DNA of 51,682 nucleotides from Thermodesulfobacteriota bacterium (lineage in GTDB: Bacteria; Desulfobacterota; Desulfobulbia; Desulfobulbales; Desulfocapsaceae), in contig JBDLID010000004.1 in the NCBI GenBank assembly GCA_039715055.1, forward strand, positions 1 through 51,682, read 5' to 3'. Within the stretch, counting starts at the first letter, position 1; the number at the start of each line of letters is the position of its first letter. Below the pieces are notes generated by a model. The model searched no databases and was not told where the DNA came from. It was given only the letters and a program-made list of their open reading frames with translations. A program made the position numbers and the translations under genes. Shown piece by piece: positions 7,123-41,393 of the stretch.

Positions 7123-8358
7123 CTAGAATTTATAGGTCACACCGACTGTCACCAGGTCAGCGACGGCATCGGTGAAGGTGCCGTTAACGTAGGTGTTGCT
7201 AACCTCGCGCTCTTCCTTGTAGTCATAAAGATATCCAACGCTGATTTCCATGGCCTCGTTGACCTTGTAGCGGGCACCGAGGGAGTAGAGCCAGGCGTCA
7301 GAGTCGGGCAGTTCGAAGTTGAGGGTCTCATCGGGTACCGGAGACTCGTCGTAGGCAAACCCTGCCATAAAGGTCAACGCTTCGGTCATTGCCCAGCTCA
7401 CGCTGATCCGGTAGGCGGAGGAGTCATCCCAGTTCTTGGGAATTTCGCTGCCATACACCTGAGCAAACACGGGGTTGGTGAAAGCACTGTCATAACTGAT
7501 GTCAATTGATTCATATTCGGACCAGAAGGTACGATCCCAGGCCATCTCAACGGTTAGATCATTAAAGGTGTAGGCACCGGCAACAGTGAGGACAGCCGGG
7601 GCCGGGATCGTAACGGAGCCGGTTGTGGTCATACCGTTGGGGACAGGAAAATTGGTTCCCATGATGACATCACCTTCCAGATCAAGGTCCACATGGGAGC
7701 GATAGGTGACGGCCAGTTTCAGGTCATCCACAGGGGTAAGGGTGGCGGCGATATTCCAGCCGAACTCAGTGGTATCACCGTCAAGCCAGCGCTCCGCAGC
7801 AATATTTCTTTCCCGGTCAACAATGCCCTTGCTTGACACCTTGGCCTCGGAATAGATCATCCGCGCGCCGACGGCAATGGAGAACATATCGCAGGTCTTG
7901 TAGGAGAGCGTGGGGTTGATATCAAAAACCTTGAGTGAATACTCTTCGGCAAATGTTGTCGCGTACTGGTCTTTCCAGCGTTTGGAAAGCCCGAACGGGC
8001 CGGTGATGGAGAAACCGATGCGGAAATTATTGTAGTCCGGGGAGACCATGAAGAGGGTGGGAAGAAGAAAATTCTCCGCCTCGGACTCACCGCTCAGCAT
8101 GGGCGATCGATTATCGTCATAGGTAACCGAAGGCAGATAAATGTAAATTCCGTCCACCTCCACCTGCCAGGCATCGTCGGCGAGGTGCATGGCGGAAGGG
8201 TTATAATAACTCGAATCGGCACCATTGGCCGAGGCAACGTGAGCACCTGCCTTGGCAGTCGAGTCAGCGGACTGCTCGGGGATGCGGTAGGCGGATCCCC
8301 AGGCGGAGCCGGCGGCCAGAACCGACACCAGGGCCATCACAGAAATTCTCTTCTTCAT
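7123..8358 (-). CDS. FadL/TodX/OmpP1-family outer-membrane transporter for long-chain fatty acids or hydrophobic compounds.
   Basis: A signal peptide (MKKRISVMALVSVLAAGSAWG) is followed by a beta-barrel-like profile. The C-terminal aromatic residue (…VTYKF) is typical of OMPs. It lies downstream of an acyl-CoA synthetase in the same orientation. Confidence 0.8.
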   Translation of the reverse strand: MKKRISVMALVSVLAAGSAWGSAYRIPEQSADSTAKAGAHVASANGADSSYYNPSAMHLADDAWQVEVDGIYIYLPSVTYDDNRSPMLSGESEAENFLLPTLFMVSPDYNNFRIGFSITGPFGLSKRWKDQYATTFAEEYSLKVFDINPTLSYKTCDMFSIAVGARMIYSEAKVSSKGIVDRERNIAAERWLDGDTTEFGWNIAATLTPVDDLKLAVTYRSHVDLDLEGDVIMGTNFPVPNGMTTTGSVTIPAPAVLTVAGAYTFNDLTVEMAWDRTFWSEYESIDISYDSAFTNPVFAQVYGSEIPKNWDDSSAYRISVSWAMTEALTFMAGFAYDESPVPDETLNFELPDSDAWLYSLGARYKVNEAMEISVGYLYDYKEEREVSNTYVNGTFTDAVADLVTVGVTYKF

Positions 8359-8444
8359 TATTCTCCTCCAATCTGTTTAACGGCTCCTGAGTGATCGGAA
8401 CCCGTCGAGTTTTGCCCTTTCCACCGGTGTTACCGGACACCGGT

Positions 8445-10217
8445 TCAGTCAGAGCTGTCTTGCTGTTCCAGGTTATTCTTTTTTCCCGAGGCATCATAAA
8501 GATACCGTTTGATCTTATGGGTAGCAGTCTTGATAAACGGTTCCCTCCGTTCATATAGTTGAGACAGGCGGGAGGCAGGAGGCAGCTGCTTGTTGACCTC
8601 TTTTTTCATATTCGCCAGCAGCTTTTCGATATAGGCATGCCGCTCGCTACGGTTCTGGCCGACGGTCTCCTCGTCGATCAATTCATAATCCGGGTAAACC
8701 CAGCCGTCGAGCCGACCGTTGTTCTCCACAACCAGTGATTCCACCACCCAGGCAAAGGCATTCATCTTGTGCTCAACCGGCTCAGGGTAGACATTTTCGC
8801 CGTTGGCCATAACGATCACATTTTTGGAGCGGCCACGAATATGGAGGTTGTTTTCTTCATCGAAATATCCGAGATCGCCGGTGAACAGCCAACCGTCTTC
8901 AGACAGCACCTCCTCGGTGGCTTCAGTGTCGTTCCAGTACCCCTGCATGACATTGGGACCACGTGCAGCAACCTCACCAACCCCGGTCTCGGGGTCCGGG
9001 TTCTTGATACGGATCTCAACATGGGGAATCGGCTTTCCGGTGGAACCAATGGCAATCGTCGGGTCTCCCGGAGGCCCACCTGCGAGCAGCGGTGCCGATT
9101 CCGTCATACCGTACCCGATGATATATGGAAAACCTGCAGCGTGAAGAAACTTCTCAACATCAGGGTTGAGTGCCGCACCACCAATTCCCATGAGCTGGAG
9201 GTTGCCACCGAAAAATTCGAGCAACTTGGCGCCGATTTTTTTGTAAATCATTTTTCTGCCGGCTTCGAACCGACAGACAGTGGACAGGACCAGGCTATTG
9301 TCGATTTTAGGCAGCACCCGTTTCTTGTAAATTTTTTCCATGACCAGCGGGACGGCAAACATGGCAAATGGTTTTTCTTCCTTGCACAACCTCTGAAGAA
9401 TTACCGGTGTGGGGGTCTTACCGGCATAGGCAATTCGAGCACCGGACAGCAGTGGCAGAATAAACCCGAGGGTAAACTCATAGGTGTGTGACATGGGCAG
9501 AATCGAGAGAAACACTGCCCCGGGTTCCACCTCAATCAATGACGAAGCCGAGTAGGCGTTGGCCGTCAAATTTTTATGGGTCAGCATCACCGCCTTGGAA
9601 AAACCGGAAGTGCCTGATGTATACAAAATAGCAGCGAGGTCCTCTTCATCGATCTCCTCGAAGCCGTACTCTTTTGACTCACCCAGTTTTTCATCACAGA
9701 GTTCATTGGCGCCATGGAGGTATTGTGAAAAGGGATCAACAAGGACAACACCTATGGTCCCCACATAATCATCAAGAGTGACCACCCGGGACAGGGTGTC
9801 ACGTTTGAGCTCATAGATTTTCTCAATCTGGCGCTGGGTGGTGAAGAGGAAAGAAACCTTCATCTCGGTAAGAATATGATGGACATCAGCTTCAGGAAGA
9901 TCAGGCAGAATGGGAACAACAATGGCACCGAGACGGACTATGGCAAAATAAGCCACTCCCCAGTTATGAGAATTCTCAGCAAGAATGGCAACGTGATCTC
10001 CTTTTTTGACTCCTTCATCAGTCAAACGGTAAGCAATTGCCATCACCCGGCCATAGAACTCACTATAGGTCAACGGGGTCTCCAACGCCATGCCTATGGC
10101 ATCACGATCTCCATAGAGATTTCGACTGTTGTCCAATATATAGTTCAGGGTCATCCGAACATCATCGTTACTTGACACTGGTAACCTCATTTTGGTGTGA
10201 ATCAAATCTACCTGCAA
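8445..10217 (-). CDS. AMP-dependent synthetase/ligase (long-chain acyl-CoA synthetase-like).
   Basis: The AMP-binding signature is LYTSGTSGFSKAVMLTHKNL. Length is 590 aa. It forms an operon with the FadL-like gene. Confidence 0.85.
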   Translation of the reverse strand: MQVDLIHTKMRLPVSSNDDVRMTLNYILDNSRNLYGDRDAIGMALETPLTYSEFYGRVMAIAYRLTDEGVKKGDHVAILAENSHNWGVAYFAIVRLGAIVVPILPDLPEADVHHILTEMKVSFLFTTQRQIEKIYELKRDTLSRVVTLDDYVGTIGVVLVDPFSQYLHGANELCDEKLGESKEYGFEEIDEEDLAAILYTSGTSGFSKAVMLTHKNLTANAYSASSLIEVEPGAVFLSILPMSHTYEFTLGFILPLLSGARIAYAGKTPTPVILQRLCKEEKPFAMFAVPLVMEKIYKKRVLPKIDNSLVLSTVCRFEAGRKMIYKKIGAKLLEFFGGNLQLMGIGGAALNPDVEKFLHAAGFPYIIGYGMTESAPLLAGGPPGDPTIAIGSTGKPIPHVEIRIKNPDPETGVGEVAARGPNVMQGYWNDTEATEEVLSEDGWLFTGDLGYFDEENNLHIRGRSKNVIVMANGENVYPEPVEHKMNAFAWVVESLVVENNGRLDGWVYPDYELIDEETVGQNRSERHAYIEKLLANMKKEVNKQLPPASRLSQLYERREPFIKTATHKIKRYLYDASGKKNNLEQQDSSD

Positions 10218-24907: not shown

Positions 24908-25765
24908 TCAAAAGCGCTCTACAATTATTTCTCGAGCCACGCTCATGAAGGCATGCAGTGCTGCAGTTTCAACATTGTTGACATGGGTTAATATTCCAAC
25001 TCTTCCCTCGCTATTTTCAAGAGGAACAGAGTTGATATGAGGCGCTATGTGGGGCAGGGCCGATACTGACTCAGGCAGCAGACTGACTCCAACACCGCCA
25101 ATGATACATGCCAGAACAGCATCCATTCCTTTTAAAGTCAATTCCCTGGTCACATTGACCTGTAAATGATTGAGGTGCTCGTACAGTATCCGCCGATACT
25201 GGCTTGCCCTTGAAAAGGTCAATGTGGTCACCTCTGCTTGAGCGGAAAATTCGTAATCTACGCCGTGGACCAGCATCAACTTTTCCGGTCTGGAAAATCC
25301 ATAGTTGAGTTTGGGGTGTGCTATGGAAATATCTGTAAGCGCACAGTCCAGCTGATGGTTCAATAACTGTGCAGTCATGGTTTCGACAAAGAGCGACTGC
25401 ACATTGATCTCCACTTCAGGGTAGTGCTTGATAAATGCTTGAAGAATTTTTGGTAACCATGCAGTTGCAGCAGTCTGGGAAACTCCTATATTCAGGAGGC
25501 CGGAGATTTCATTTTGTGAGAATCTGGTTTCAGTGTCCTTTGCCAGTCGAACAATCTGTTTTGCCTGCCCTATGAGTTCACGACCATTGGCGGTAAGGGT
25601 CACCCCCCTGTTCTCACGGTAAAACAGCTGTGCATCAAGAGTGCTTTCCAGCTTCTTAATCCGGGCAGTCACATTGGGCTGAACACAGTTGAGCTTTTCT
25701 GCAGCCCGTGTAAAACCGCCGCTTTCCACAACCGTAAGAAAGACCATCAGGTCATAGATCTCCAT
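24908..25765 (-). CDS. LysR-family transcriptional regulator, divergent from the GNAT/DapF-like unit.
   Basis: The HTH begins the protein (MEIYDLMVFLTVVESGGFTRAAEKLNCVQPNVTARIKKLE), followed by an LTTR substrate-binding domain. The start was set at the internal ATG at 25765; the ORF-track extension to 25936 lacks homology. Confidence 0.85.
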   Translation of the reverse strand: MEIYDLMVFLTVVESGGFTRAAEKLNCVQPNVTARIKKLESTLDAQLFYRENRGVTLTANGRELIGQAKQIVRLAKDTETRFSQNEISGLLNIGVSQTAATAWLPKILQAFIKHYPEVEINVQSLFVETMTAQLLNHQLDCALTDISIAHPKLNYGFSRPEKLMLVHGVDYEFSAQAEVTTLTFSRASQYRRILYEHLNHLQVNVTRELTLKGMDAVLACIIGGVGVSLLPESVSALPHIAPHINSVPLENSEGRVGILTHVNNVETAALHAFMSVAREIIVERF

Positions 25766-25924
25766 GTCATCACCATTTTTGATTGATTCATAAAAATTGA
25801 TTATTTGAAACAATATCACGAGTTGACCATAGTTCAAGTAACTGATCAACAAAAGAACAAAAGGGTGGAAAGGTGCTTTTCCGGTGAAAGAACTGCCCCC
25901 TGACAGCAACGGAGAGCCACAGTT

Positions 25925-26329
25925 ATGGAAATACAATACCGGACGACACAGTCGTTTGAGCGTTCACAGTTACAGCAGTTGTTTCTCGCGGTGGAGTGGT
26001 CTTCCGGCAACTATCCGGACAGGTTGCAGACTGCCATGAAAAATGCTGACACGGTATTTTCTGCTTGGGATGGCACCAAACTGGTTGGGCTGATGCATGC
26101 TGTTTCCGATGGTGTTATGACAGCATATTTCCAATATTTACTCGTCCACCCGGATTATCAGTCGAGAGGAATTGGCAATGCCCTTGTCACCGCAATGCTT
26201 GGTAAATACAAGGACTGCGCCCGTAAAGTGCTGATAGCCTATGACAAGGAAATTGAATTTTATAAGAGTTGCGGTTTTCTGGTCGGACATGGCAAAACAC
26301 CAATGTTCATCACCTACCTGTCAACATGA
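25925..26329 (+). CDS. GNAT-family N-acetyltransferase.
   Basis: Acetyl-CoA-binding motif A-like sequence (YQSRGIGNALV), 134 aa. The stop overlaps the next gene's start (ATGA). Confidence 0.75.
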   Translation: MEIQYRTTQSFERSQLQQLFLAVEWSSGNYPDRLQTAMKNADTVFSAWDGTKLVGLMHAVSDGVMTAYFQYLLVHPDYQSRGIGNALVTAMLGKYKDCARKVLIAYDKEIEFYKSCGFLVGHGKTPMFITYLST

Positions 26330-35882: not shown

Positions 35883-37937
35883 TCACCAGACCCTATTGAT
35901 AACTTTCTTTATTGCCTGAACCTGTTCAGCACTTTGTTCACTTTTTAAGGTGACAAAGGATAAGGGGAAGGCAAATTTCTCCTGTTCCCAGACCACCAGG
36001 CTTCCCTCTGCAGCATGTTCTCTTGCCTGATCTTCGAGCATGAAATTAAGCCCCACTCCAGATTTTATCAAACTGAGAATAGCTGCTTCATCACTGGCCG
36101 CAATGACCCGTTGAGGGAAGAAGCCCCGATCATAAAAGATATCGTCCATCATTTGACAGTAGGGACATTCCGCTGGATTACCGATCCAGGGAAGCTCTGC
36201 CAGATCTTCATATTCAGCATTCATAATCTTGTCAGCCATCTGGGATGGTCCCACAATTCGCAAATAAAGGGTAACCAGGTGTTGAACCACGAACCTGTCA
36301 TCATCACAGGTTCCAAAAACAAAACCGCCATGCAACTCACCGCTTGCGATAAGCTTCAGGATATTACCGGAAATGGACTGATGAAACCGCAGCACCATTT
36401 CTGTATCTCCAGGGGAGAAATTCTGAATAACTTTTTCAATCTTAAGAAGTTCGGGGTCACAGTTCAATCCAACCACCACCTCTTTGCCGATTGGTACATT
36501 ACTGAGCCTTTTTGGAGGTTTAATCAGTGAATCAGCCAGCTTACCAAGTGCTTCCATGCCCTGTTCAAGTCTGTCACTCCAGGGATGACCATACGATAAC
36601 CGAATACAATGGTCATACTGGCCACTACCTGAGCAGAGCGTACCCGGCATTATGGCAATATCCTCCTTTTCCGCCAGGCGAAACAGTTCAAGGCTGTCCA
36701 CATTGCCCGGCAACTCTACCCAGAGGCTCAGTCCTCCTCTTGGAGACGATATCCGGGTACCCGGGGGAAAGTAGCGAACAATGGCCTGGCTCATGTCTGC
36801 GGCCTGTCTGCGAAGACTGGTTCGCAGTTTCCGCAGGTGACGGTCATATCCACCGGTCTCCAGAAAGTTGGCAAGAGCATGCTGCATAAGCTGAGAGCAT
36901 GCAATGGAGTTGTTGAACTTGAACCGTTTTACTTTTTCCCGGTATTTCCCGGCCAGAAGCCAGCCAAGCCTCATGTCCGGCAGGAGAGCCTTGGAAAACG
37001 AACTACAGTAGAGCACCATTCCCTGACTGTCAAAGTGTTTAAGAGGGAGAGATTTGGACTCTCCAAAGTAGAGATCGCCGTAAATGTCATCTTCAATGAT
37101 TGGTATGCCCCGTTCACTGAAGAGTGCAACCAGGCCCCGTTTGGCAGACTGCTCCGTATCAAACCCCAACGGGTTCTGAAATGTTGGATTGAAAAGGGCG
37201 GCACGAATATCATGCTCATCAAGTGCGTTACGAATTGTATGTAAATCCAATCCGCTGGACGGGTCTGCCGGAATTTCAAGGGCCTGCATGTTGAGGTCTT
37301 CAATCAACTGGAGGTAACAGAGAAAGGTGGGAGATTCCATCAGGATGATGTCCCCTGGTCTTGCCACACTTCTCAAACAAAGCTCGATACCGCTCATGCA
37401 GCCCTGGGTCACAATAATCTCACTGCCGCATTCCCTGTGGGGAAGATTCAGGGAGCGCTTGGCAATCCCTCGTCTCAGCTTTTCAAGCCCTGCAGAAGAT
37501 CCATAACCAACACTGACCCCATCCTGATATCCAGCAGCGGCAGTTCGTATGGCTGCAGCCATCTGCTTTCCCGGTAGAAGAGACGGCGCTGCAGTGGCCT
37601 CACCAAAAGGTATCAGGTCAGGATTGTCCAGGGATCGTTGAATGAGGGAGGACAGCACATTGATTGCCACCTTGTGTGATTTCACGGGAGAAGTGGACTG
37701 ATTTGGTAAGGGGAGGATATCTCGCAGCAGAGGTTTTGCAAAAAATCCCGACTTCTCTCTTACTTCAACCAGTCCACGGTTCTCCAACTCTTCATAGGCC
37801 TGATAAATGGTGGAGATTGATCTGCCTGTGGCGGCCTTAAGCTTTCGCAACGACGGAAGTTTCTCTCCGGCTCGATAATCACCTGCTTGAATCTGTCTTT
37901 CCAGTTTGTTGGCCAGTTGTACATAGTGATATTCCAT
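35883..37937 (-). CDS. MocR-like regulator (GntR-family HTH plus class I/II aminotransferase-like domain) with an extra C-terminal LysR-type substrate-binding (PBP2) domain.
   Basis: There is a GntR winged HTH at the N-terminus and an aminotransferase fold in the middle. The last ~200 aa show the LTTR effector-domain pattern (ILKLIASGELHGGFVFG...LRIVGP...VIAASDEAAILSLIKSGVGLNFM). The ORF is 684 aa versus about 480 aa for a typical MocR. Confidence 0.8.
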   Translation of the reverse strand: MEYHYVQLANKLERQIQAGDYRAGEKLPSLRKLKAATGRSISTIYQAYEELENRGLVEVREKSGFFAKPLLRDILPLPNQSTSPVKSHKVAINVLSSLIQRSLDNPDLIPFGEATAAPSLLPGKQMAAAIRTAAAGYQDGVSVGYGSSAGLEKLRRGIAKRSLNLPHRECGSEIIVTQGCMSGIELCLRSVARPGDIILMESPTFLCYLQLIEDLNMQALEIPADPSSGLDLHTIRNALDEHDIRAALFNPTFQNPLGFDTEQSAKRGLVALFSERGIPIIEDDIYGDLYFGESKSLPLKHFDSQGMVLYCSSFSKALLPDMRLGWLLAGKYREKVKRFKFNNSIACSQLMQHALANFLETGGYDRHLRKLRTSLRRQAADMSQAIVRYFPPGTRISSPRGGLSLWVELPGNVDSLELFRLAEKEDIAIMPGTLCSGSGQYDHCIRLSYGHPWSDRLEQGMEALGKLADSLIKPPKRLSNVPIGKEVVVGLNCDPELLKIEKVIQNFSPGDTEMVLRFHQSISGNILKLIASGELHGGFVFGTCDDDRFVVQHLVTLYLRIVGPSQMADKIMNAEYEDLAELPWIGNPAECPYCQMMDDIFYDRGFFPQRVIAASDEAAILSLIKSGVGLNFMLEDQAREHAAEGSLVVWEQEKFAFPLSFVTLKSEQSAEQVQAIKKVINRVW

Positions 37938-38070
37938 GGTCTCACCCTGACACTGCGCAATCTGTTATGGTTGTTTTTTTATATTTCTGCATCTGTTCCT
38001 ATCTAGCATCTTAACTATTATGAAGTAAAGGGAAAAAATAACAGATCAGGAAGTTAAACCGGGAGGAAAG

Positions 38071-38268
38071 GTGATGAAGGTAGAGAGATTCAAAGAGAAT
38101 TTATGTTGGCTGATGTGCCCTGAAGACAGCAGTGTCCTGGAGGAAGAATGGATGAGAAACTACTCCTTCAATCAAAATGCAAAGGAATCTCTATTGTCGG
38201 TTATCAAGTTTCTCCTCTGGTACGCGATATCCGTTGTCATGGCTTTTATTCTGGCCGGGCTGGACTAA
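38071..38268 (+). CDS. Small hypothetical protein (65 aa) with a C-terminal transmembrane helix, divergent from the MocR-like regulator.
   Basis: ORF with a hydrophobic C-terminus (LLSVIKFLLWYAISVVMAFILAGL). No homology was recognised. Confidence 0.3.
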   Translation: MMKVERFKENLCWLMCPEDSSVLEEEWMRNYSFNQNAKESLLSVIKFLLWYAISVVMAFILAGLD

Positions 38269-38321: not shown

Positions 38322-38843
38322 ATGATTAGACAAGCGACAGGCACTCTCAACAGAGAAACTTACAACAACGATTCAGCAGATCAAAAAAGACTGTTAGCAG
38401 ATGTAATCAAATGGTTTAATACTGTATCGGAGATCCGGGAAAGATCACCAGCAATTTTAACCGTCCACAGAGACACGGGATTTGGCAATCAACTGACAAG
38501 CACTGTTACCTGCGTGGAAGAAGCTGTCCATATTCCACGGGGGCTGCGAAACTTCAGGAGTAAACCACAATTTGACCTCGTTTTTTACTCACCTCTTCAT
38601 GGTGCTGAAAACCTGGACCATCTCTTAGAAGATTTCTGCTACTGCCGGATGCTGTTGAGACCCGGCGGATTCATTTTTTTTAGAGCAGAGCCCGATGCAC
38701 CCTGGTGGGCCAACTGCTGGTTTAGCGGAGCAGGCAAAGAAAAGATGTCCTGGCTTCGGCAGGCAGGATACATGAAGGTCATGAGGACAAAAATTGGTAC
38801 TGAGATGGTTGTCTGTGGGCAACGACCACTACCGAACTATTAA
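38322..38843 (+). CDS. Hypothetical protein with weak methyltransferase-like features.
   Basis: 173-aa ORF with an LLRPGGFIFF-type motif. No confident family assignment. Confidence 0.4.
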   Translation: MIRQATGTLNRETYNNDSADQKRLLADVIKWFNTVSEIRERSPAILTVHRDTGFGNQLTSTVTCVEEAVHIPRGLRNFRSKPQFDLVFYSPLHGAENLDHLLEDFCYCRMLLRPGGFIFFRAEPDAPWWANCWFSGAGKEKMSWLRQAGYMKVMRTKIGTEMVVCGQRPLPNY

Positions 38844-39034: not shown

Positions 39035-39814
39035 ATGAAAATGAAGCTCTACCAAATTGATGCCTTTACTGATCAACTCTTTTCTGGGAATCCGGCTGCA
39101 GTCTGCCCCCTTGACGACTGGCTGTCCGACGACTTGATGCAGCAGATAGCCCTGGAGAATAATCTGTCGGAGACAGCTTTTTTTGTGTTTCGCGATGGCG
39201 AATATGAGCTTCGCTGGTTCACTCCGGCAACAGAGGTTGACCTGTGTGGCCATGCCACCCTGGCCTCCGCATATGTGATTTTTAATGTTTTGAATTATGA
39301 TTCCGGACAAATCATCTTTAATACCAGAAGCGGCCAGCTGGTGGTGGGCAAACAAAAAGACTTCTTCTCCATGGATTTTCCATCACAGCCTCCCACCGCC
39401 TGCGAGGTTCCGCCAAACCTTATCGCTGCTCTCGGTGTGCAACCTGAAGAGGTACTGTCTTGTGAGGATCTCCTTGTCGTTTTCCAATCGCAAAACGATG
39501 TGGAACAATTGACTCCTGTTTTCAATTTATTGAAAAAAATTCCCCAACGAGGAGTGATTGTCACCGCGCCGGGCAACGATGCTGACTTCGTATCGCGCTG
39601 CTTTTTCCCAAACCTGGGAATCAACGAAGACCCTGTTACGGGTTCTGCCCACTGCACATTAACACCTTATTGGGCCAAACGACTGGACAAGACGGAACTG
39701 GAAGCTCACCAGGTCTCTTCCAGGGGTGGAAAACTGCGATGCAAAATTGATGGGTCAAGAGTGGTGATGTACGGACAAGCGGTCAAATACCTGGAAGGGT
39801 TGATCGAGATTTAA
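39035..39814 (+). CDS. PhzF-family (phenazine biosynthesis-like) isomerase/epimerase-fold protein.
   Basis: PhzF signature N-terminus (LYQIDAFTDQLFSGNPAAV...LSETAFF), 259 aa. Confidence 0.85.
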   Translation: MKMKLYQIDAFTDQLFSGNPAAVCPLDDWLSDDLMQQIALENNLSETAFFVFRDGEYELRWFTPATEVDLCGHATLASAYVIFNVLNYDSGQIIFNTRSGQLVVGKQKDFFSMDFPSQPPTACEVPPNLIAALGVQPEEVLSCEDLLVVFQSQNDVEQLTPVFNLLKKIPQRGVIVTAPGNDADFVSRCFFPNLGINEDPVTGSAHCTLTPYWAKRLDKTELEAHQVSSRGGKLRCKIDGSRVVMYGQAVKYLEGLIEI

Positions 39815-39839: not shown

Positions 39840-41393
39840 TCAATCTCCACCTTTTTCGGATTGAACCACCTCATCATACTCTTCGGGAAAGTGTTCCTGA
39901 GCACATTCCGGACAGATAGCGTGGCTGATATCAGCCTGGGAGTGGCTTCGAATAAATGTATCTACCTGTTGCCAATAACCTTCGTCATCACGTATTTTTT
40001 TGCAATATGAGCAGAACGGCAGAATCCCTTTTAAGGTTTTAATTTCGACTATTGCTTTTTCCAGTTCAAGGATAACCTCCTCTTTTTTCTCTTCTGCCCT
40101 TTTTCGCTGTTTTACTTCAATACTTAATTCATCTCTTGAAGCCATGGTTTTGTGGAGATTTTCCGACATATTGTTCAATGATTGTGCCAAAGACCCTATT
40201 TCATCACCAGAAAGCACATCTGCTCTTTTTTCAAGATTACCTTCACCAATGACTTGAGCAGTTTCTGCCAATTTCACTATGGGACTGGCAACCCATTTTC
40301 CCAAAAGCAAAGAAACAAAAGCGGTTAATATAGTGATCAAAATTCCGGAAACAAGAATTAACAGTGTTGTTTGATCAATAGCCTTTTCGGCTTCTTCTTT
40401 AGCCATACATACAAGAACATGCCAACCTTCACCTAAATTCCCTTTAATGTGGTCGATGGATTCTTTACTGCCTCCAAAACCAAATTTATCCGATCCCATT
40501 GTTATTCGAATGGGAGAAAAAGCAGCTAACCAGTCATCATTGCTTCCCGAGACAATTATGGTACCGTTTTCTTTTTTATGTAACTGCTCCAGATGTGCAT
40601 CGTTAACTTTTGTAGATAAGGGCACGATGCCCTGTTCGGCTACTATTAACCCACCGGTGCGTACTATTCTTAATTTGCCGCTATTTCGCTGACTAAACTC
40701 CTGGATGACATCGGTCAACGGTCCCATAATATTGACATTGCTTTTCAAAATTCCAATAATCTCATTATCATTCATTATTGGAATAACCACTCCGAGAACA
40801 TACCCCCCAACACTCGTATCAAAACCACGGTCATCCAGAAAAACTCTGCCCTTACCATTATCAAAGCACGCTAGCCACCAGTATTTATGAGCATGGGCAA
40901 GAGTTGTGAGTTTTCCAGTTGTAGCGACCATCACCCCGTAACGATTAGTAAGAAATATTTCACCGTACTCCTTTGGTAAAATTACCTGCTGTTTTTTTAG
41001 ATAGTCAGCAGCAGGGTTGAACATGTGCTCCTGAACAAAAGGGTCGTTGATGTCAACTGCGTTCTTCCATTGTTTGTTGAGTCGGTCAATCTCTTGCTCT
41101 CTTTGTGCATCTGAAAATGCGGCAAATTCAGAATTACTCTTCAGCAGAGTATTTTTAATAAGAGGTGAAGAGGAAAGAGTCGTGGCAATTTTTGTCTTTT
41201 CTGTGAGGCGGGAATCCAAATGTAACGCAACTTCTTGTGCAATATTTTGCAATCTTTGCAGCTCCTTGCCTTGAAGAACTCTATGACTGTACATGTCATA
41301 TCCTACTGAAAGCAGGAGTAATATGACAACTCCGAACAAAGTCATTATGATCGAAGCTTTATACTGTAGCTTCATAATTCTCCCCATTTGCAA
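39840..41393 (-). CDS. Membrane sensor: TM, Cache-like periplasmic domain, TM, HAMP, coiled coil and a C-terminal Cys4 (CxxC...CxxC) module. No kinase, MCP, GGDEF or other known output domain is present.
   Basis: Two TM segments flank a ~300-aa periplasmic region. The HAMP sequence is SPIVKLAETAQVIGEGNL...IGSLAQSLNNM. The C-terminal module is FCSYCKKIRDDEGYWQQVDTFIRSHSQADISHAICPEC. Confidence 0.7.
   Translation of the reverse strand: MQMGRIMKLQYKASIIMTLFGVVILLLLSVGYDMYSHRVLQGKELQRLQNIAQEVALHLDSRLTEKTKIATTLSSSPLIKNTLLKSNSEFAAFSDAQREQEIDRLNKQWKNAVDINDPFVQEHMFNPAADYLKKQQVILPKEYGEIFLTNRYGVMVATTGKLTTLAHAHKYWWLACFDNGKGRVFLDDRGFDTSVGGYVLGVVIPIMNDNEIIGILKSNVNIMGPLTDVIQEFSQRNSGKLRIVRTGGLIVAEQGIVPLSTKVNDAHLEQLHKKENGTIIVSGSNDDWLAAFSPIRITMGSDKFGFGGSKESIDHIKGNLGEGWHVLVCMAKEEAEKAIDQTTLLILVSGILITILTAFVSLLLGKWVASPIVKLAETAQVIGEGNLEKRADVLSGDEIGSLAQSLNNMSENLHKTMASRDELSIEVKQRKRAEEKKEEVILELEKAIVEIKTLKGILPFCSYCKKIRDDEGYWQQVDTFIRSHSQADISHAICPECAQEHFPEEYDEVVQSEKGGD

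Follow-up and report, generated by a model that had tools for sequence, protein, structure and literature searches.

The MocR and LysR families are among the best-studied designs of one-component signalling, and regulators of either are usually described as having one sensor domain. The question raised by the locus considered here is whether the sensor of one family can be carried, complete and conserved, by a regulator of the other. The locus lies in a contig of 51,682 nt (JBDLID010000004.1, assembly GCA_039715055.1; the whole contig is referred to as the window) from a Thermodesulfobacteriota bacterium of the Desulfocapsaceae. An initial annotation, made from the sequence without database searches, had read the open reading frame (ORF) at 35883..37937 (-) as a fusion of three parts: a GntR-type helix-turn-helix, a MocR aminotransferase-like domain, and a LysR-type effector-binding domain (EBD). 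Domain searches bear this out, and in the searches made the architecture is conserved, rare, and found in one small clade of sulfur-cycling bacteria.

Both modules are textbook; what is new is their conserved and rare combination, which is undescribed in the literature searched. Open-access surveys, reviews, and targeted full-text searches of the MocR and LysR literature gave no description of the three-domain architecture. One MocR classification selected its sequences by helix-turn-helix and aminotransferase domains and then split them into those two parts, so that a third domain would go unnoticed.

Domain layout

The regulator gene is a single uninterrupted reading frame of 684 amino acids (aa) plus a stop codon, and contains the sequence strings quoted in the initial annotation. 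All three of its Pfam domains score over their gathering cut-offs. A GntR-type winged helix-turn-helix (wHTH; PF00392) occupies aa 5-66 (37740..37925, (-); E 4.7e-14; score 52.2 bits, cut-off 27). It is followed by a fold-type-I aminotransferase-like domain, the sensor and dimerisation domain of MocR regulators, at aa ~103-466 (36540..37631, (-)), within which Aminotran_1_2 (PF00155) matches aa 137-452 (E 3.6e-25, 89.4 bits). A linker at aa 467-485 (36483..36539, (-)), of low conservation and low predicted confidence, leads to the EBD at aa 486-684 (35886..36482, (-)). This is a complete LysR-type domain, resembling the type 2 periplasmic binding proteins (PBP2) in having two lobes; LysR_substrate (PF03466) matches aa 503-680 (E 1.2e-19; score 70.9 bits, cut-off 28), a match to positions 24-204 of the 209-position profile. 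The protein thus does not end after the aminotransferase domain at ~450-500 aa as a two-domain regulator would. The Pfam scan found no match in it to PF00126 (HTH_1), the LysR DNA-binding domain.

Against NCBIfam, aa 5-464 align to MocR-type regulators. The top model is PdxR, but because its score of 250.6 bits falls under the 320-bit equivalog cut-off, the protein is classified here, by sequence, as MocR-like and not as PdxR.

The LysR effector-binding domain

Over its whole length, the C-terminal stretch of 203 aa matches residues 89-290 of P0128, a canonical LysR regulator of 303 aa, at 38% identity and with one gap. Because the homology starts at residue 89 of that protein and spans all 203 residues, the alignment implies that the fusion carries an entire LysR EBD and none of the LysR helix-turn-helix or linker helix. 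The initial annotation had allowed that this region might prove not to have a LysR fold; Pfam, profile searches, and the end-to-end alignment all find a complete EBD.

An exhaustive HMMER search of 1.84 billion representatives with a profile of the C-terminal domain (A1) gave 709 hits, the 150 best of which were inspected. Just one of these is a fusion, a protein of the same family (P0011) matching at its residues 491-691; this agrees with the earlier suggestion that the architecture is unusual. The remainder consists mostly of ordinary LysR regulators (~290-315 aa) that match at ~92-290, with some shorter sequences that have the same domain. It was this search that revealed the donor subfamily, of which P0128 is the best match and which matches the EBD profile at E 1e-53; a homologue search by word index, run with the same domain, brought up nothing but fragments of the fusion family. 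Searches of the PDB with the single sequence or with a narrow profile gave no match, and a broader profile (A6) was needed. With this, solved LysR effector domains were matched over their full length, the nearest being 5TPI (1.5e-14); the other matches are BenM and CatM (E ~1e-9), Cbl, CysB, and YeiE, with OxyR matched weakly (E 8e-4).

An AlphaFold2 (AF2) model gives the EBD block means of 75-93 for the predicted local distance difference test (pLDDT) over residues ~491-684 (65 at 481-490), with alternating beta and alpha elements whose predicted order fits the two-lobed PBP2 topology.

The subfamily and the fused domain have their whole EBD in common, including the motifs QxxSG, at the N-terminus of a lobe-I helix, PW, and CP[YF], at the N-terminus of the first lobe-II helix. 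The free-standing proteins (P0128, P0129, and relatives) differ in having HTH_1 and a linker helix and no MocR part. In the fused domain the best-conserved residues are those of the loop and helix-N-terminus motifs: SGN at 523-525, PWIGNP, and CPYC at 591-594. Retention of these loop motifs argues that the EBD still binds some ligand. No NCBIfam model reaches its cut-off with the donor subfamily (best ~127 bits against 250), and its members have no informative names; P0128 itself adjoins isochorismatase-family and PEBP-family genes. As a separate observation, in the ~700 representatives of this subfamily (P0128-P0276; 5TPI) lobe II of the EBD has a Pro-Trp pair and a cysteine that do not vary (PW...CP[YF]), the cysteine presumably corresponding to Cys199 of OxyR.

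The CPYC motif (Cys591-Pro-Tyr-Cys594; 36156..36167, (-), codons verified) stands at the N-terminus of the first lobe-II helix, modelled at residues 592-600. Its first cysteine is widespread, being present in 61 of 62 fusion members and 102 of 124 free-standing relatives. Two others are specific to the fusion clade and missing from the P0128/P0129 subfamily: Cys594 (59 of 62), which completes the motif, and Cys544 (52 of 62). Cys591-Pro-Tyr aligns to residues 201-203 of BenM, which are taken here to line its primary effector pocket, and Cys591 presumably stands at the place of Cys199 in OxyR; the motif probably lies in the ligand cleft.

CPYC is a glutaredoxin-type sequence at a helix N-terminus, and on sequence grounds the CxxC suggests, speculatively, thiol chemistry. 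The EBD could conceivably be a thiol-based sensor of redox state, sulfur species, or a metal that gates a MocR switch responding to PLP (pyridoxal 5'-phosphate) and an amino compound, making the protein a two-input element in which pairing of LysR domains might also give a new oligomer. This is put forward as a doubtful elaboration. If it were true, pairing of EBDs would combine an aminotransferase dimer with an effector-domain dimer, an arrangement unseen in either parent family.

Distribution and origin of the fusion

A search of 5.8 billion clustered proteins for homologues of the same architecture, as the initial annotation had proposed, yielded ~61 further clusters (at 90% identity) with the same three Pfam domains, at 50-79% identity and 100% coverage and with lengths of 683-704 aa. 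They come from NCBI, JGI, ENA, and Logan assemblies. The named members are from metagenome-assembled genomes (MAGs) of Desulfocapsa, Desulfobulbus, and Desulfobulbaceae, and all named ones are Desulfobulbales. A scan of genome contigs with the single protein found the fusion in two species genomes; it used exact peptide patterns, and so understates the distribution. At NCBI the fusion proteins are named "aminotransferase class I/II-fold PLP-dependent enzyme," while the JGI pipeline gives them the double label "MocR family regulator/LysR family regulator"; the generic NCBI name flags a systematic under-annotation.

Among the 62 members, including the window protein, mean column conservation is highest in the wHTH (0.83), followed by the aminotransferase domain (0.76), the EBD (0.69), and aa 467-490 (0.46). 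The EBD is conserved to about the same degree as the rest of the protein, and its level, set against those of the aminotransferase domain and the linker, indicates that the extra domain is under purifying selection. In the AF2 model, pLDDT is <50 at linker residues 475-484.

In a neighbour-joining tree of the shared MocR core, 61 fusion proteins fall into one clade with only three shorter proteins, one of which (P0098) is a genuine two-domain protein with a different neighbourhood. The fusion is nearly monophyletic in this tree, which points to one origin and, at most, rare loss. The two-domain proteins closest to the regulator, such as P0081 of Desulfoprunum and P0084 of Desulfosediminicola flagellatus, are 55-61% identical to it over the wHTH and aminotransferase domains and end at the equivalent of its residues 473-481.

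Where the extra domain came from was considered at the level of neighbouring genes. The window has a LysR regulator of its own, at 24908-25936 (-), with canonical HTH_1 and LysR_substrate domains; by BLASTP it shows no relation to the fused domain (E 0.33). A LysR gene in another fusion locus (L004) is likewise unrelated, and both were rejected as donors. Read-through fusion of neighbouring genes is also unsupported: no LysR gene flanks the two-domain relatives in the neighbourhoods examined, and the LysR genes found nearby are unrelated.

The MocR part and its cofactor site

For the aminotransferase domain, alignments were obtained to PH0207/KAT-like enzymes (E ~4e-43), GabR, and PdxR; Foldseek searches with the AF2 model gave LysN, KAT, GabR, and PdxR as top matches. 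Whether the PLP-binding lysine is retained had been posed as a check on the initial reading. It is: Lys316 (codon 36990..36992, (-), verified), the Schiff-base lysine of an SFSK motif within SSFSKALLPDMRLGW, aligns to GTFSKILAPGFRIGW of PH0207 and is invariant in 62 of 62 members. So is the remaining cofactor site, with Asp283, Asn255, Ser313, Ser315, Arg323, and Arg446 in all 62 and Tyr286 in 60. In aspartate aminotransferase, the lysine forms the Schiff base, the aspartate contacts the pyridine nitrogen, and the equivalents of Arg323 and Arg446 bind the phosphate and the substrate alpha-carboxylate. Because these residues are invariant, the PLP sensor site is read as intact, and its make-up would suit an amino-acid-like effector. 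Five cysteines of the aminotransferase-like domain (180, 187, 207, 311, and 435) are also invariant in all 62 members.

The closest well-described counterparts have this part only. GabR of Bacillus subtilis (PDB 4N0B, 4MGR) has the same N-terminal GntR wHTH and a PLP-binding aminotransferase fold with an intact cofactor site, but at 479 aa it ends after that domain, whereas the window regulator continues for ~200 residues of LysR EBD; sequence similarity between the two is low (E ~5e-18) and their target genes are unrelated. PdxR (NF052282; PDB 7PQ9, 7ZN5) is the best full-length family match to aa 5-464 and has the same two N-terminal domains. It differs in that it lacks a third domain, and no pdx genes lie near the window regulator.

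Predicted operator and putative divergent promoter

At the DNA level, the region between the regulator and the divergently oriented genes contains a predicted operator of two direct AACAGAT boxes: box 1, nearer the regulator start codon, at 37960..37966 (-), and box 2, 31 bp away beside the divergent promoter region, at 37991..37997 (-). Both are predicted from conservation across loci. Upstream of the regulator, all eight aligned loci have the same layout: a T-rich block with CTTTGC, ~20 nt, CTGGTAAA, ~5 nt, (A)ACAGAT, 24-25 nt, and (A)ACAG[AT][AT], with this second box some 20-40 nt ahead of the regulator start codon. In the window, the exact pattern ACAGAT-N25-ACAGAT occurs once, at this site.

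As in GabR, the two boxes are about three helical turns apart, between the regulator's own gene and a divergent target. The GabR repeats are ATACCA sequences 34 bp apart, from which the protein represses itself and activates gabT. Direct repeats are a common operator type among MocR regulators (PMC5320631).

The two-domain relatives keep an ACAGAT-type repeat at or near the 31-bp spacing: the shorter ACAG pair is present at L008, L009, and L013, not at L010, and the exact ACAGAT pair at L009 only. Since the pair is thus also found in three of the four, the wHTH and its operator pair are read here as ancestral to the fusion.

On the divergent side, a -10-like hexamer, TATTAT, was identified by manual reading at 38016..38021 (+), 18 nt downstream of box 2, where it could serve the divergent operon; by the same reading, each of the eight aligned loci has a TAnnnT hexamer at this offset. 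A consensus promoter scan did not call the hexamer. Further conserved blocks lie beyond the two boxes, at ~38002-38039: CTGGTAAA, found in most loci and degenerate in the window, and the T-rich block ending in CTTTGC. These may belong to the promoter, mark the 5' end of the divergent transcript, or bind another factor. There is also a third, inverted AACAGAT box at 38040-38046 (+), just upstream of the ribosome-binding site of the small ORF described below; none of seven other loci compared has a box at that position or in that orientation.

Proposed mechanism and alternatives

The interpretation considered probable is that of a MocR-type one-component factor which gained a complete LysR EBD at its C-terminus, once, in an ancestor of the Desulfobulbales clade, and which now combines a GabR-like PLP switch with a tethered second module. 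As in other MocR regulators, which form head-to-tail, domain-swapped homodimers, the aminotransferase-like domains would form an obligatory fold-type-I dimer. Its two wHTH domains would bind the two direct (A)ACAGAT boxes, whose 31-bp spacing corresponds to three helical turns. By analogy with GabR, box 2 would abut the -35 region of an activator-type divergent promoter. Both boxes lie no more than 60 bp from the regulator start codon; from these positions and the same analogy, autorepression would be expected together with activation of the divergent operon, which encodes the small membrane ORF and a methyltransferase-fold protein. PLP would form an internal aldimine with Lys316; binding of an amino-acid-like effector through Arg446 would convert this to an external aldimine and so throw a conformational switch. 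The EBD, on a flexible linker of ~20 residues, would still be a ligand-binding clamp and not filler, and a second signal, the pairing of EBDs into dimers of dimers, or both, would modulate the MocR switch.

That the regulator integrates two ligands, as the initial annotation had suggested, is consistent with the conserved pocket-type motifs of the extra domain. BenM provides a precedent for integration of two small molecules by one regulator (PMC6628147). The EBD fold of BenM and CatM matches that of the window regulator over its whole length; in BenM, however, both effectors are bound in one domain and the DNA-binding domain is of LysR type, whereas here there would be two sensor folds and a GntR DNA-binding domain.

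Several points weigh against this proposal. The whole of it is computational, and neither ligand can be inferred from sequence. Every fusion member comes from MAGs or metagenomes. For the operator, a chance test within the single window is weak: 0.27 matches are expected at one mismatch, and 23 of 100 shuffled sequences had at least one. The case for the boxes is therefore made by conservation across loci, each of the nine other fusion loci having ACAG-N27-ACAG a short distance upstream of the regulator. A consensus promoter and terminator scan made no call in the intergenic region between the regulator and the small ORF, and so no sigma-70 promoter there. In the full-length AF2 model, pLDDT is <50 at 143-178 and at 314-345, the latter including Lys316, and the aminotransferase domain is poorly packed (root-mean-square deviation to homologues ~18 A); misaligned LysR rows in the alignment used (A4) may be the cause. 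The model is of a monomer and is silent on contacts between domains or subunits, and was not used for inter-domain geometry. Lastly, the make-up of the regulon varies somewhat, since two loci (L005 and L007) lack the methyltransferase-fold gene in the divergent position.

A plausible, though rather less likely, possibility is that the EBD no longer senses anything and serves only as an oligomerisation or scaffold module, for example by joining two MocR dimers into a tetramer that bridges the boxes. LysR EBDs are known dimerisation modules, no ligand could be inferred for this one, and the operator region contains conserved blocks beyond the needs of two wHTH domains: CTGGTAAA, the T-rich CTTTGC block, and, in the window, the third inverted box. 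Conservation within the domain points the other way, however. The residues kept best are in the loop and helix-N-terminus motifs it has in common with free-standing relatives described as ligand-responsive; they map to the region aligned with BenM 201-203, taken here as pocket-lining, and not to a surface patch, and a role confined to an interface would give no obvious need for a near-invariant CxxC.

It is very unlikely that the protein is mainly an active aminotransferase, with the wHTH and LysR domains accessory or vestigial. All catalytic and cofactor residues of class-I aminotransferases are indeed kept, and the NCBI family label is that of an enzyme; but MocR regulators, GabR and PdxR among them, keep the same residues and are the best full-length matches, no part of the protein is more conserved than the wHTH, and every fusion locus has a conserved direct-repeat operator upstream of the gene. 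An artefact of assembly, frameshift, or gene calling that joins a MocR and a LysR gene, which the initial annotation had named as a danger and which might be suspected in a window from a metagenome-assembled genome, is effectively excluded by the ~61 clusters from independent assemblies in four data sources, all with the same continuous ORF, by the start of the C-terminal part at LysR residue ~89 without the LysR helix-turn-helix, not expected from read-through of adjacent genes, and by the absence of an adjoining LysR gene in the two-domain relatives.

With the sensor folds of both families behind a single DNA-binding domain, the regulator offers a test case in three respects: for the coupling of two allosteric modules in one regulator; for whether a LysR EBD can act when the DNA-binding domain and linker helix that normally go with it are missing; and for the joint rise of new logic and new targets, since the wHTH and operator are ancestral and the changes are in the C-terminus and the regulated operon. 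For biosensor engineering it is a natural precedent for modular two-input sensors.

Neighbouring genes

The neighbours are as the initial annotation had them: a divergent small ORF with a hydrophobic helix, a methyltransferase-like gene, and a PhzF-family gene. The first two are the sole recurrent neighbours of the fusion gene and its likely regulated targets, and are defined here as two further families, one of small membrane ORFs and one of methyltransferase-fold proteins with a degenerate S-adenosylmethionine (SAM) motif.

The small ORF (38074..38268, (+)) encodes 64 aa with a WLMxPEDSS motif and a C-terminal hydrophobic helix. Its family, found in the window and at L001, L002, L005, L006, and L011, consists of proteins of 58-66 aa with an N-terminal WL[ML]xPE[DN]S and, at the C-terminus, a hydrophobic helix whose last residues are usually LH. 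No Pfam family covers it, and at L001 and L002 it had been left uncalled as a gene.

The next gene (38322..38843, (+)) encodes a protein of 173 aa with no Pfam match and a class-I methyltransferase-like fold: its AF2 model has a predicted template modelling score (pTM) of 0.70, and Foldseek matches it to methyltransferases at E ~1e-8, with TM-scores of ~0.55-0.6. Homologues of ~175 aa adjoin the regulator at L001-L004; at L006 the equivalent position holds a gene that has no Pfam match and was not aligned. The family has invariant CYCRMLLRPG and G-x-RP motifs and is fast-evolving, with 34-42% identity where the regulators have 70-79%. Its glycine-rich SAM motif is degenerate, with the family consensus ILSVHGS and ILTVHRD in the window protein. 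As the fold matches include the SAM-less N-domain of anamorsin, the protein may be a pseudo-methyltransferase.

On the same strand, after the methyltransferase-fold gene, is the PhzF-family gene (39035-39814, (+); Pfam 2e-62). PhzF-related COG384 proteins have been reported from some MocR (PdxQ) regulons (PMC5320631). The other fusion loci have no PhzF gene, however, and it was rejected as a member of the unit, together with the downstream metallo-beta-lactamase-fold gene, since neither is a conserved neighbour in other loci.

The divergent neighbour of the two-domain MocR relatives is a response regulator, not the small ORF and methyltransferase-fold gene. Comparing the two groups by sequence, what has happened looks like a rewiring of the regulon with the DNA-binding specificity kept. 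At L008, L009, and L010 the response regulator divergent to the two-domain MocR gene has a single domain, and a TRAP transporter is next to it at L009 and L010. Elsewhere in the window, 39840-41393 (-) encodes a dCache-HAMP protein without a kinase domain and with a Cys-rich tail, CSYCKKIRDDEGYW...ICPEC; at L004 a dCache_1-HAMP gene (8160-9236, (-)) directly adjoins the fusion gene, which may be coincidence.

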